From Cladosporium halotolerans (lineage: Eukaryota), in NCBI RefSeq assembly GCF_011745625.1, contig NW_027191469.1, positions 124,001 through 188,000 on the forward strand: a stretch of DNA of 64,000 nucleotides, given 5' to 3'. Positions 33,388 to 38,738 of the stretch are shown one piece after another. The notes under the pieces are model-generated. The model saw nothing but the letters and a program-made list of their open reading frames with translations, had not been told where the DNA came from and made no database searches. The position numbers were made by a program, and so were the translations under genes. How positions within the stretch are numbered: the stretch's first letter is position 1; every line of letters begins with the position of its first letter.

Positions 33388-33850
33388 GGAAGATAGCTCG
33401 CGGCTTTTGAGTAGGGTCGAAATGGTCGCAAGGAATGCAGAGGTCAAAAGATCGTGGCGTTGGTACTGTGCCGGAGCCGTTTGCTCCGGACGTGGTCGGC
33501 AGGTCGTGTTGCACAGAGAAGGGTAGGGTCGTAGAGGCAGAGGTCCGGGTCCGATGCAGCAAGGGCCAACTGCGTCAGCGCAGCTCGGTCTCGCCGTGAG
33601 CTGTGAGCGCGGGGGCGGAGATCAGGGTGCAACGGTCCTGGTGAATTTGGAGCTGTCCAGCTGCAGGATCATGAAAGTTTAATCAAATGTCAACCAACTT
33701 TCTGCGGTTGCTAACCGCGCCAATCAACGCGATGTCTAGCATCACTCAGCCACGCTTGTGCATGCCTTCATAGCGTCAACGATGTTGACTCAGCTTAACG
33801 GAAGAGAACTTCTATCATGCTACAGCACTTTGTGAAAAGTCAAGTCCAGC

Positions 33851-35806
33851 ATGCCAGCCCAACCGCGAGGCCGGGCGTGTCAAAACTGCCAGTCTATCAA
33901 GATCAAATGCGAGCTGGGCGCTCACGGCGGCGAGCCGCCTTGTGAACGGTGTACGCGGCTGAACAAGTCATGCGTTCTTGCTCTGCCAAAGCGACAAAAA
34001 GATAAAGTAGCCGAATTGGAGGCAAAGGTGGCAGCCCTTACAAAGCTTCTCGGATCACAAGGTCTCGAAGATGCGTCCGATGAAGCGAGACATCTTCGGA
34101 CGCCCAGTACGCAGTCTTCAGGGCTATCTGACGGTGCGCATGATTCATCTTTCAGGAAGAAACGCAAACTGGAGCAGCCCGCTGGGAGAACTGACAGCGA
34201 ATCAAATGGGGTCTACTCATCGCCAGAAGGGGGAACCAGCACCGATGTTGACGTTCCTGACGGTACTGACTGGCTTGATCGCATGATTTCCATCGACCAG
34301 CAACAGCTTGTACTGAACGAATTTGTGAACTCCTATCAGTCGATCTTCCCAGCCATTCCTTTGGAGCCTGGCGTTGAAGCAAGAGTCATGCGAGAAACAG
34401 TGCCTCATACATTTCACGCCATCATCTACATCGCCAGTGCCGGTATACTCTCGTGGGACCTCCAAGACAAGATCAACCTGACACTTATCGAAGAATTAAC
34501 GTCTATCACTCTTGTGCAATGTAAGAAGTCACTCGATCTCCTCCAGGCTTTGCAACTTGTTTGCCTCTGGTATAGAAGCCCGAGAAATGCGACACAGATA
34601 CCACTCTTCCAGCTTATCACCATCACTTCTGATATGGTTGTGGACCTGGGCTTCGGCGGCTTGGATTATCCTCCAGCCTTGACAATTGAAGGAGCGGCTG
34701 AGGAGGGGCTGCTTAATAGCGTCGATGCGCATCGAAGGTGGCTTGTGTCATTCGTCATTACAGAGACAGCAGCTCTTCTCAAGCGGAGAGCTAACGGGCA
34801 GAAATGGTCTTCGCATCACGATCTGTGCTTGCATGAGTTGGAACTAAGCGGACAATCTCTCGAATCTGATGCATTGCTAGCGCAACATGTCCGCGTCACC
34901 CGAATGCTAGCCTTAATCTGCGATAACATGGAGCTCAATGTGACATCGACGTCTCCGGTTCTCGGCACACCATCCTGTCAACAAATCATGCAGAACCTAC
35001 AGGCCCAGATCATGACCTGGAGGCTCCAAGTCCCCTACGAAATCTGGCCATCAAGCCTTGCTTTCACGGGATTTTTCGCTGAGGTACTCCTCTATGAAGT
35101 AGTCTTGCAGACGCCCACCAACAAAGCAACTTTCGCGGCACCTTTCATGGTCGAGAGGCTTTCAACCATCGACGTGCCGAGCCCAATTTTGACACAAGAC
35201 CACATCAACTCTGTCCACTGTCTCAAGACAGCTTGCCATAACTTGCTAGATACCGCTGCAACTTTCACAGAATCCGAGTTGATCACTCTCCCAACGTCAG
35301 TCTACGCGCCGCGAATAGCACATACCGTGGTGGCCTTGTTGAAGTTACACATTGCCATCACGGCGCCTGGCAACACTTACGGTCAGACGCTTTCTCCCGA
35401 AAATGTGCAGACGGAAGCATACATCAACAAGTGCCTGGACATCGTGAACCGAGGAAGTAGGATTGACGCGGAAGCCGTGATGGTCCGGATCGTGAAGTAT
35501 GTGCAGAAGCTGAAAGATTGGCTGCAGGAGTACGAGGCTTCAAGGCTCCATCCAGAGAAGCCTGGGAATGCCCATCTCGCGTGCCACTACACAGTCCATG
35601 ATGGATCTGGCTGGACAATACGGAGAAAGGAATGCAGCAATGCCGAGATACAAAATAATCCTGCGCAGCATCGCAGCGCTCTGGGGGCACAAGTGGCGGT
35701 GGATGCTGATGTGCCGTTCATGGATTTCTTCATCACTGAATTTGCGATAGGCGACATCGACTTGTTTGATCTTCTTTCAGAGCCTGGCAAGAGCCTAGAA
35801 CTGTGA
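33851..35806 (+). CDS. Zn(II)2Cys6 transcription factor
   Basis: CQNCQSIKIKC...CERCTRLNKSC cluster, coiled coil, basic NLS RKKRK, fungal TF middle region, acidic C-terminus. Confidence 0.9.
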   Translation: MPAQPRGRACQNCQSIKIKCELGAHGGEPPCERCTRLNKSCVLALPKRQKDKVAELEAKVAALTKLLGSQGLEDASDEARHLRTPSTQSSGLSDGAHDSSFRKKRKLEQPAGRTDSESNGVYSSPEGGTSTDVDVPDGTDWLDRMISIDQQQLVLNEFVNSYQSIFPAIPLEPGVEARVMRETVPHTFHAIIYIASAGILSWDLQDKINLTLIEELTSITLVQCKKSLDLLQALQLVCLWYRSPRNATQIPLFQLITITSDMVVDLGFGGLDYPPALTIEGAAEEGLLNSVDAHRRWLVSFVITETAALLKRRANGQKWSSHHDLCLHELELSGQSLESDALLAQHVRVTRMLALICDNMELNVTSTSPVLGTPSCQQIMQNLQAQIMTWRLQVPYEIWPSSLAFTGFFAEVLLYEVVLQTPTNKATFAAPFMVERLSTIDVPSPILTQDHINSVHCLKTACHNLLDTAATFTESELITLPTSVYAPRIAHTVVALLKLHIAITAPGNTYGQTLSPENVQTEAYINKCLDIVNRGSRIDAEAVMVRIVKYVQKLKDWLQEYEASRLHPEKPGNAHLACHYTVHDGSGWTIRRKECSNAEIQNNPAQHRSALGAQVAVDADVPFMDFFITEFAIGDIDLFDLLSEPGKSLEL

Positions 35807-36755
35807 ACCCTTTGGCTAGAGCGGTGCATAAGTGCGATTTAGATCTGTGATAATGACAACCTCCCGGTTCTGTCCAATGATTTTGCTGATAACGCTAGAG
35901 AAGGTCTGTTCGATCGTCTCACGTACTCGTTTCCAGGGTCGCGAAAAACCTACCTGGTAAATAGCCAGCCACGGCAACACGGGTCAACAGACGCGAAGTC
36001 AAGGAAGGTCGCTATTGTAATTACCATCGTCTGCGGTGTCGCCGTCTCCAGCATTTGAATCCCCCCGTGCCCCCGCAATCGGACGTCTCCGCTGCAAGCG
36101 GCCACCCTTTCACGCATCTCCATAATGCATGAGAAGAGCACTCTTGCACGATCCGCCAACCCTAGCGCGATCCTTGCATTTAAATGTGTCCCTGCCAGAT
36201 GAAAAGGTACTCAGGCCGGGTATCTTTGTTCACGACATCTAGGACCGTGAAACGACGTAATGATTCCCCGGCAGTAAGAGTTCCACTGCCGGGCCGGTTC
36301 TACCCACATCTGCGACCCTTGGCCTGACCCTGGCCCTACGTTTACTCGATCACATCGAGTCAGCGGGGGAGAATTATCGCCTGGAGCCGGGGCGCCTCTA
36401 TCGCACTCTATCTCGGCTGATAAGGTTCGCGTCCTCTCGGCCAACGAATTCGCAGCATCAACACGATCAACTTACGCGGAATAGGTAGAGTTCACTGCAG
36501 TCTCGTGGGCGGAGATCTGTGGCCTTACGCACCATGCGGCTGGATCGCCATGGCACGCGGTGCCGTGAAGGCATAAGAGCCACGGGTTCCCACACAAGGG
36601 AGGTACCTTGAACGCATCAGACTTTCCTTGTACCACAAAATCGGCCGAAGTGTTCAGTCAATTGCCGGGTCTGCTACACCTTTTAAGCCTTGGTGGACAA
36701 CAACGTCGTTCCCTTCCGGCCTATCTCTTTTTCGCTTGCCTCTTGATCCTCCAAC

Positions 36756-38738
36756 ATGGAGCGGGTCAAGAGCTCGAAGCTGGCCCATTATGCAGAGAAG
36801 TTCGCGGTCGAGTCTGAGCCCGGGCTCACCACAACACAACTACTGCTCACCAATGGTAACTACTTACCCTCTGCCGAACATCCTGCACACCACCTGACAT
36901 AATCTCTTAGAGGATCTGAAACCAGTAGAGCCGGCACGTAGAGAATGGCGCAGTCGAAATTTTGGTAAGTCAAATATTCTTTATGGTGCATGAGAAGGTA
37001 GACAATATGCTAACGATTTAACAGTACGTATCATATCCTCTATCCAAAAGACAGGCAATCCAACCTCCCATGGAGCACGACGCTGATTGTTTTACCAATA
37101 GGTCGCGTTCTGGATCGCAGACTCGTTCAACATCAACACATGGATGATTTCTTCCGCTAGTATCATCAACCCCGGCCTTGCATGGTGGCAGTCTTGGCTT
37201 TGCGTGTGGATCGGATATTCCATTGCCGCCATGTTCATCTGCTTGACCGGTAGGATTGGTGCAAAATATCACATCTCGTTCCCAGTCGTTGGAAGAGCGT
37301 CTTTCGGAATCTGGGGATCACTATGGCCTGTCTTGAATCGCTCAGTCATGGCTTGCGTCTGGTATGGTGTCCAGAGTTGGATTGGAGGTAAGTATCATTC
37401 GTCGAGATCATATCCACATCCACCTAACAACGTTAAGGTGAATGCGTCTTCCTCATGATCCGATCAATCTGGCCATCGTGGGACAACTACGCTGCTGGAG
37501 GCAGCAAGAACACGATTCCGGAGTCGACAGGAGCCAACACGGCTGGCTTCGTCTCGTTCTTCCTGTTCTGGCTCGGCTCGCTGCCATTCCTATGGTTCCC
37601 AGTGCACAAGCTTCGCCACCTCTTCACCGTCAAGTCGTACGTTGCACCTTCTGCGGGTATCGCACTCTTCATTTGGGCTATCGTCCGCGCGGATGGTCTC
37701 GGACCCATTGTCGACCAACCAGCCAAAGTTGGAGGCAGCGCCCTCGCTTGGGGCATCATCAAAGGGTAAGACAACGCTCTCGCATTGTCACGATGGACAT
37801 AGGCTGACGACTGTTGTAGCATCATGTCCTCTATTGCGAATTTCGCTGCCCTGATTATCAACGATCCTGATTTCAGTCGTTTTGCTCGTCGCCCTAACGA
37901 TGCACTATGGTCTCAGCTCCTCACGATTCCATGCTCGTTCGGGCTCACCAGCTTTATTGGCATCATCGTGTCGTCTTCCGCCGCCGTGATTTACGGCGAG
38001 CCTGTTTGGTCTCCATTGGAGCTTTTGGGGAACTTCCTGCGCGATCCCACAGTGGGCGGCGCCACAAGGTTCGGCGTCTTTGTCATCGCGGCTGCTTTCG
38101 TCCTTGCGCAGCTGGGTACAAACATCGCAGCCAACTCCGTCTCCGCCGGTACCGATCTCACAGCACTGCTCCCTCGGTACATCAACATTCGAAGAGGCTC
38201 CTACATCTGCGCGATCGTCGGCATCGCCATCTGCCCATGGAACCTCCTGAAAGACAGCAACTCCTTCACAACCTACCTCTCGGCCTACTCGGTCTTCCTG
38301 TCGTCGATCGCCGGCGTGATGGTCTGCGACTACTACTGGGTTCGCAAAGGCTACCTAGAGACGCAGAACCTGTACTCCGGGCTGAAGACAGGACCCTACT
38401 ACTTCACCTACGGCTTCCACTGGCGTGCGTTCGCGGCCTACGTCGCCGGCATCATCATCAACGTGGTCGGCTTCGCGGGCGCGGTTGGCACTCCCGTCCC
38501 GATCGGAGCGGAGTACATCTACAACCTCAACTACTTCTGCGGCTTCATCGTGGCGGCGGTCGTGTACGCTCTGCTTTGCCGCATCTCGCCCATCCCGGCT
38601 ACCAGCAAAGTGTGGCTCGAGGTGGACGATGACCTCGATGGGAGAAACGGAAGTGTGGTGGAAGGCATGATACCTCCCGACGAGGAGACTTCCGTGGGAG
38701 TGCACGCCTACAACAAGGGTGATGACATGCGGGATTGA
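36756..38738 (+). CDS. NCS1-family (Fur-type) uracil/allantoin permease; exons 36756-36855, 36911-36963, 37102-37387, 37438-37765, 37820-38738
   Basis: [73 protein letters not shown]. Confidence 0.93.
36964..37102 (+). other. Spliceosomal twin intron (stwintron), [D1,2] with alternative [A2,3] route
   Basis: TTT|G GTAAGT..GCTAAC..ACAG TACGTA..GCTGAT..AATAG|GTC. Only two-step excision keeps RNF|VAFW in frame. Confidence 0.88.

Follow-up and report, generated by a model that had tools for sequence, protein, structure and literature searches.

A stwintron is an intron of which one splice-site element is interrupted by another intron. The closest described system is the DHA1 antiporter gene dhaoS, in which an alternatively spliced [D1,2]/[A2,3] stwintron was found in Trichoderma reesei and a strict [D1,2] stwintron in Aspergillus nidulans (Fekete et al. 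2017, PMC5587772). According to the same source, 36 of 73 DHA1 orthologues are strictly [D1,2] and 28 are alternatively spliceable, the others having discordant canonical introns; a [D1,2] stwintron is also [A2,3] when both flanking exonic positions are G; and the direction of the shift could not be determined in that study. Another [D1,2]/[A2,3] stwintron, of Helminthosporium solani, was verified experimentally (Ag et al. 2015, as cited in PMC5587772). The sister [D1,2] stwintrons described from Hypoxylaceae and Xylariaceae are repeated, similar in sequence and located at species-specific positions (PMC9024468, PMC12403724), and in the recursive or nested splicing of long animal introns removal is stepwise, with no splice-site element interrupted by another intron (PMC5587772). 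Here we describe a 138-nt interruption of a uracil permease gene within a stretch of 64,000 nt from Cladosporium halotolerans (assembly GCF_011745625.1, contig NW_027191469.1, positions 124,001 to 188,000; the whole stretch is hereafter the window, and positions are counted in it). The interruption is most probably an alternatively spliceable [D1,2]/[A2,3] stwintron, composed of two U2-type introns overlapping at G37024, and the probability of this reading was estimated at about 0.87.

Layout of the interruption

The coding sequence of the NCS1, Fur4-like uracil permease (36756-38738, + strand, 561 amino acids) consists of five exons separated by four interruptions. Exon 2 ends in ..CGA AAT TTT (TTT at 36961-36963), followed by G36964, and exon 3 starts at 37102 with GTC GCG TTC TGG, the sole acceptor before it being AATAG, which ends at 37101. 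The 138 nt between 36963 and 37102 form the interruption. The protein search with the last exon gave 1242 proteins at E <= 0.001 among 7300 candidates, and the spliced model was aligned with the first 60 of the best 120 that were listed. An ungapped N-F-[VI]-x-F-W spanned the exon 2/3 junction in 54 of these 60 homologues, therefore the mRNA must read ..AAT TTT GTC GCG.. at this place. The six exceptions were P0002 and P0004, with wrong-frame N-termini, P0012, P0013 and P0026, with the N-terminal part unaligned, and P0028, a fusion model. Across 35 homologues F51 was invariant and V52 was at least 90% conserved.

No single canonical U2 splice gave a functional mRNA, as is characteristic of stwintrons. 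With one intron from GT36965 to AG37101, the extra G36964 was left behind and the frame was shifted (..RNFGRVLDRR..), with a stop after 19 codons. Micro-exon models were tried and rejected: a TAC exon (3 nt) shifted the frame, and an exon of TA (2 nt) or TACGT (5 nt) remained in frame but added a residue missing from the 54 homologues mentioned above and needed non-GT donors. The preliminary description of this stretch, made from the sequence, had stated that a single 36965-37101 intron or a TAC micro-exon would cause a frameshift, which the reading frames bore out. The elements of the interruption were as follows.

36964, + strand: upstream flanking G; opens the outer donor in the [D1,2] route and the exonic Val codon in the [A2,3] route; present in orthologous loci L001-L003
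36965-37024, + strand: 5' unit, 60 nt; donor GTAAGT 36965-36970, branch element CTAAC 37010-37014, acceptor CAG 37022-37024 (..ACAG)
37024, + strand: shared G, last base of the 5' unit acceptor and first base of the 3' unit donor (ACAG/TACGT)
37024-37101, + strand: 3' unit, 78 nt; donor GTACGT 37024-37029, branch element CTGAT 37083-37087, acceptor TAG 37099-37101 (..AATAG)
37102, + strand: downstream flanking G and start of the GTC codon for the conserved Val; part of the exon in the [D1,2] route, supplying the G of the outer acceptor (CA+G) in the [A2,3] route

The predicted branch A was located at 37013 in the 5' unit, 11 nt before the unit end, and at 37086 in the 3' unit, 15 nt before the unit end. 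Every AG followed by T inside the interruption was considered as an inner junction, and a two-step solution was accepted when neither unit was shorter than 45 nt, the donor read GTAYGT and a branch element preceded each acceptor by 10-15 nt. Exactly one such canonical path was found in the window, and likewise in each of L001, L002 and L003. In this path the first nucleotide of the external donor is separated from the second by a complete internal intron, excision of which gives GTACGT..CTGAT..TAG; this is the [D1,2] arrangement. Exonic G was present on both sides (G36964 and G37102), and the same was found in L001-L003 (TTTG/GTAAG .. CAG/GTCGC), which is the [D1,2]/[A2,3] arrangement. With G36964 and G37102 flanking the interruption, either unit can therefore leave first, the other being rebuilt with the flanking G. 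The 5' unit is thus the internal intron in the [D1,2] route and, together with G37102, the external intron in the [A2,3] route; the 3' unit is the internal intron in the [A2,3] route and, with G36964 replacing G37024, the external intron in the [D1,2] route. Both routes led to the identical ..AATTTT GTCGCG.. mRNA, in agreement with the observed junction. All coordinates of the preliminary description (36964, 36965-37024, 37024-37101 and 37102) hold on the sequence, and the two routes that it proposed are both canonical on paper, give the same mRNA and have G at both flanking bases, which is the published criterion.

From this layout we infer a two-step excision with both orders available. Whichever unit is spliced first would take the shared G37024. 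With the 5' unit first, G36964 would be joined to TACGT, the donor GTACGT would be rebuilt and the remaining 78 nt would be removed up to AG37101. With the 3' unit first, A37023 would be joined to G37102, the acceptor CAG would be rebuilt and the remaining 60 nt would be removed from GT36965. Either order would produce ..AAT TTT GTC GCG.. (..N-F-V-A..) in the frame of a uracil-type NCS1 permease, presumably by two consecutive U2 reactions under intron definition.

For the chance test, the interior of the interruption was shuffled with the outer donor and the last 30 nt fixed, and an inner YAG/T(R)NG(Y) site was sought that came with a branch point and left neither unit shorter than 45 nt. Mononucleotide shuffling produced such a site in 102 of 20000 trials and dinucleotide shuffling in 24 of 5000 (about 0.5%), and the stwintron layout is beyond chance.

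Orthologues with the same layout

Metagenome contigs were scanned with an alignment of 35 homologues; 260 stretches were matched, 192 of them encode relatives, and the best 80 were kept. The counts given here are of loci, not species, and several loci duplicate one sequence from different samples. Loci L001, L002 and L003 had the same layout as the window, with net lengths of 156, 143 and 143 nt, L002 and L003 being identical here. Their 5' units were 60, 57 and 57 nt long with CTAAC 11 nt from ACAG, and their rebuilt donors were GTATGT or GTACGT, with CTGAC 10-11 nt from CAG. The ACAGTAYGT motif was invariant except at Y in the window and L001-L003. Splice-signal positions were identical to the window at 20/23 in L001 and 22/23 in L002, and the other intron positions at only 34/114 and 49/114, respectively; the second branch element was excluded from the signal count, as it was not aligned by MAFFT. 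The three loci are positional orthologues. In L001 and L003 the Zn2Cys6 gene upstream (window 33850-35540) was syntenic, the L002 contig being too short to show it, and introns 1 and 3 of the permease gene were common to the window and L001-L003.

Two further relatives were known as protein models. In P0002 and P0004, the two closest JGI models, wrong-frame read-through N-termini ended exactly at VAFW. They spelled ..L-V-S.. (TTG GTA AGT) and ..H-A-N.. or ..Y-V-N.. (branch element) over 16 codons and were followed by VAFW. Such errors up to VAFW are as expected if the stwintron site cannot be solved by gene callers. Judged from these translations, the genomes of P0002 and P0004 would carry a 49-nt 5' unit, which with the annotated 3' unit may form a stwintron. 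Uracil-permease orthologues in Cladosporium-like genomes are probably mis-annotated or truncated.

No second copy of either unit was found in the 64-kb window or the 80 loci, which is weak evidence that holds for this scope, and the units did not fold better than shuffles (z 0.88 and 0.37). An origin from a repeated or Introner-like element was rejected on these two results, with the same weakness of the evidence.

Transcript-like contigs across the junction

The assembled contigs of four sequencing runs (X1, X14, X4 and X10), none recorded as RNA, were compared with the window. The X1 and X14 contigs are DNA, covering introns and intergenic DNA. The X10 contig (518 nt) was aligned on 36633-36854, 36910-36963 and 37102-37341. 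In the X4 contig (1334 nt) 36963 was joined to 37102, with 54 letters on the short side, and the alignment went on over 37102-37385, 37436-37764 and 37819-38479. Thus, in both contigs, which come from two studies, the joint from 36963 to 37102 skipped 138 nt with the ends GG..AG (or GT..GG), one ambiguous base and no letters between, which also speaks against the micro-exon models. The mature junction 36963^37102 of the preliminary description was in this way seen in transcript-like contigs. The joints of the three other introns were plain GT..AG. No part of the interruption was covered by X4 or X10. Because the upstream 36300-36572 was also uncovered and the variant letters were mostly common to X1, whose DNA retains all introns, X4 and X10 were taken as probably RNA. 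Between X1 and the window 73 letter differences and 13 gaps were counted over about 2700 positions. At least seven of the differences were inside the interruption (36970, 36975, 37032, 37043, 37062, 37065 and 37095); those listed hit no GT, AG or branch element, and only 36970 T>A altered a signal (donor position 6).

Several points weigh against the two-step stwintron. X4 and X10 were labelled RNA by guess only and may be DNA. Both derive from a close relative (~97-99% identical), a strain other than that of the window. They display the mature junction only, with no intermediate or lariat, and assembled contigs cannot reveal rare intermediates. In addition, the branch element CTGAT of the 3' unit is weaker than the CTAAC consensus. 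The mature junction alone is also compatible with a one-step non-canonical splice, in which the 138 nt would be removed at once as GT..GG or GG..AG and the inner signals would be irrelevant, and the contigs do give the net junction only. Such a splice is nevertheless very improbable, as the three other introns of the gene are strictly GT..AG, a layout of this kind arose in so few of the shuffles, and inner ACAG/TAYGT together with inner CTAAC is the best conserved part of the otherwise diverged L001-L003 intron, which a one-step model leaves unexplained. We know of no use of GG as a splice-site dinucleotide in Pezizomycotina, and this was counted against it as well.

An artefact would take either of two forms, an assembly error at G36964 in an ordinary phase-0 intron, or 'transcript' contigs that are in fact DNA of an intronless retrocopy. 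The sequence TTTGGTAAG was found in the window and in L001-L003, the independent DNA contigs X1 and X14 crossed 36964 with no indel listed, and X4 and X10 skipped all four introns, left the upstream intergenic bins uncovered and shared most of their variants with the intron-bearing DNA of X1. Against these results stand the guessed RNA label and the existence of intron-poor DNA versions of the gene (L004-L006, described below), and the artefact is hardly credible.

Intron states at the site and order of splicing

The state of the site in the 80 loci was assigned by a regex-based classifier, which left 15 of the 80 unresolved; these were settled by eye.

Stwintron layout: L001-L003 (3 loci)
One canonical phase-1 intron (TTTG/GT..AG/TN): L004-L006 (50-52 nt) and L030 (49 nt) (4 loci)
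One canonical phase-0 intron (TTT/GTACGC..CTGAC..TAG/GTC): L045 (109 nt) (1 locus)
Start inside an intron ending ..TAG/GTC: L053 (1 locus)
No intron at the site: 57 by script, and L011, L015, L022, L024, L025 and L041 by eye (63 loci)
Site not reached or state ambiguous: L026, L037, L047, L049, L055, L060, L070 and L077 (8 loci)

L004-L006 were syntenic with the window and without any other intron, and their site intron was located 1 nt downstream. A precise loss of the [A2,3] internal intron would produce this very phase-1 intron, which corresponds to the '3' position' of the 2017 model. The introns of L045 and L053 correspond to its '5' position'. Canonical introns were thus found at both neighbouring positions, as a 1-nt intron shift series requires. 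The orthologue survey for one-nucleotide shifts suggested in the preliminary description accordingly yielded phase-1 introns (L004-L006, L030) and phase-0 introns (L045, and L053 in part). L030 had a long branch and was unplaced. L045 and L053 were among Sordariomycetes in the FastTree tree, far from the Cladosporium-like clade and surrounded by loci without an intron at the site; for their intron, an independent gain and inheritance from an old stwintron are equally likely. Any common descent of the distant introns (L030, L045/L053) from a stwintron is hypothetical. The position of intron 3 was common to the distant L017 and L023; intron 3 therefore predates the clade and has been lost in L004-L006.

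Introns near the site were also observed. In many distant orthologues an intron follows F-W-[VI], roughly five codons past the site, and in others one follows D-S-F-N-I; loci with such nearby introns were L011, L015-L018, L023, L027, L029, L035, L039, L041, L050, L056-L058 and L066. Differing intron positions cluster in the short conserved stretch around the site, a hotspot in this respect.

The [D1,2] order is expected to predominate, given the earlier transcription of the 5' unit and its stronger signals. It could be supposed that this order alone is used and that the [A2,3] route is a formality arising from the initial G of the Val codon. The early transcription of the 5' unit and its consensus signals GTAAGT/GCTAAC, compared with GTACGT/GCTGAT of the 3' unit, would fit this supposition, and so would the near-invariant Val, which fixes G37102, so that this base need not reflect selection for a second route. 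L004-L006 hold exactly the canonical intron expected after loss of the [A2,3] internal intron, however, and both alternative internal introns were demonstrated in the published T. reesei case (PMC5587772). Exclusive use of the [D1,2] order is accordingly unlikely, and the alternatively spliceable form is preferred.

Direction of change

In the protein tree, the Cladosporium-like clade (window, P0003, L001/L002, P0002, P0004 and L004-L006) had support of 100/99, and within it the grouping of P0002 and P0004 with L004-L006 had support of 100/98. In the codon-DNA tree the relations of the window, L001/L002 and L004-L006 were weakly supported (40/14). A grouping of the three DNA-verified stwintron bearers was compatible with the data (p-AU 0.379 for DNA and 0.19 for protein), and these values gave no decision on polarity from the DNA-verified taxa alone. 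When P0002 and P0004 were counted as stwintron bearers, the tree with all bearers together was rejected (p-AU 0.0007). On balance an ancestral stwintron and a derived canonical intron are favoured, with a chance slightly short of even; the change was possibly a single cDNA-mediated event in which introns 1 and 3 disappeared as well.

The phase-1 intron of L004-L006 could tentatively be regarded as the genomic fossil of a reverse-transcribed splicing intermediate of the [A2,3] route. In a single cDNA-mediated conversion, introns 1 and 3 would then have been lost along with the 3' unit, and only the external intron, which is slow to splice, would remain. If this is true, the [A2,3] route operates in vivo and the direction of the 1-nt shift is given, from stwintron to canonical intron.

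A different loss was suggested by P0121, a Logan open reading frame of 179 amino acids on a 14205-nt contig, from a relative in the Cladosporium-like clade; it was 96% identical in exon 3 and had the extra Pro specific to this clade. Introns 1 and 3 are read through in this frame, yet ..KNFVAFW.. is contiguous. This relative appears to have lost the whole stwintron and kept introns 1 and 3, if the 14-kb contig is DNA.

The permease gene and its surroundings

The remaining parts of the gene, with exons set by the reading frames, were as follows.

36756-36855; 36911-36963(64); 37102(03)-37387; 37438-37765; 37820-38738, + strand: exons 1 to 5
36856-36910, + strand: intron 1, canonical GT..AG, 55 nt, phase 1; skipped by the X10 contig; common to L001-L003
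37388-37437, + strand: intron 3, canonical, 50 nt, phase 1; skipped by the X4 contig; position occupied in L001-L003 and distant L017 and L023
37766-37819, + strand: intron 4, canonical, 54 nt, phase 2; skipped by the X4 and X10 contigs

Intron 4 was absent from all six syntenic orthologues (L001-L006) and present in the window lineage only, which means either a lineage-specific gain or repeated loss.

The PF02133 profile (Transp_cyt_pur; permease for cytosine/purines, uracil, thiamine, allantoin) was matched by exons 3, 4 and 5 with E values of 2e-35, 1e-18 and 6e-76 and scores of 122.7, 67.5 and 256.4 bits (cut-off 23.5), over profile positions 15-440 of 440. Among the 120 matches listed, nearly all were fungal, and 'uracil permease' was the commonest label where a source name was given. 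The closest named homologue among them was P0003 of Cladosporium fusiforme (84% identity), and identity to proteins annotated as uracil permease was 65-84%.

Some public permease models were irregular in other ways. Chimeric models were observed among P0001, P0012, P0015, P0018, P0022, P0026 and P0028; a 744-amino-acid 'Verticillium albo-atrum' model contained two partial permease copies, Hortaea werneckii models were fused to cytochrome P450 (PF00067), and a Lecanosticta model carried a fused Zn-cluster domain, perhaps through read-through from a neighbouring regulator gene. P0005 and P0125, uracil permeases of fungal type, were recorded under Quercus suber and Carpinus fangiana, both plants, and probably come from fungal contaminant contigs in plant assemblies; P0005 grouped with Capnodiales-like fungi in the tree.

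Upstream of the permease, about 950 nt away on the same strand, an open frame of 656 codons was observed (33836-35806, +) with an N-terminal Zn(2)-Cys(6) domain (PF00172, E 5e-6). Its position upstream of the permease was kept in L001 and L003-L006, and it may be a dedicated permease regulator.

Comparison with known systems

The intron type described here is rare but already known, and the gene is a new one for it. The literature search, which did not extend to subscription journals or supplements, revealed no stwintron described from Cladosporium or from any gene for an NCS1 or uracil permease. As read from the sequence, the case has every feature by which the [D1,2]/[A2,3] kind is recognized. 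As far as the literature was searched, this is the second gene family with a full 1-nt shift series (stwintron, 3'-position, 5'-position and no intron). The series is partly among close syntenic orthologues, in which its direction and mechanism (cDNA-mediated loss) are testable. The site defeats gene callers, which matters for annotation, and the 1-nt intron-shift model gains in it a second case for testing.

The fungal Fur-type NCS1 uracil/allantoin permeases include Fur4 and FurD/FurE. The protein resembles this group in the PF02133 match over its length and in its identity to annotated uracil permeases; only the intron is unusual, and the permease is ordinary, its substrate being assigned putatively by homology.

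In recursive splicing the splice sites of the outer intron are intact, whereas here the outer donor (or acceptor) is nonexistent until the inner unit is removed. The sister stwintrons share the [D1,2] geometry and differ from the present case in their repetition, for neither a second unit copy nor an unusual fold was found here within the window and loci searched. The H. solani stwintron, compared by description only, is likewise from a Dothideomycete and has the overlapping configuration and two routes to an identical mRNA, in a different gene.

The likeness to dhaoS is the closest. In both cases a single G is shared by two U2 introns with an exonic G on either side, one mRNA results from either order of excision, orthologues have either the stwintron or canonical introns 1 nt apart, and the gene encodes a membrane transporter of Pezizomycotina. 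The differences are the family (NCS1, not MFS/DHA1), the host (a Cladosporium-like Dothideomycete) and the phase, which is 0/1 here and 0 or 2 there. The intermediates were shown experimentally in dhaoS, in contrast to the layout and mature junction on which the present case is based. Finally, unlike in dhaoS, the stwintron and the 3'-position intron occur here in syntenic orthologues about 75% identical in coding DNA, and the canonical form has lost the other introns of the gene.

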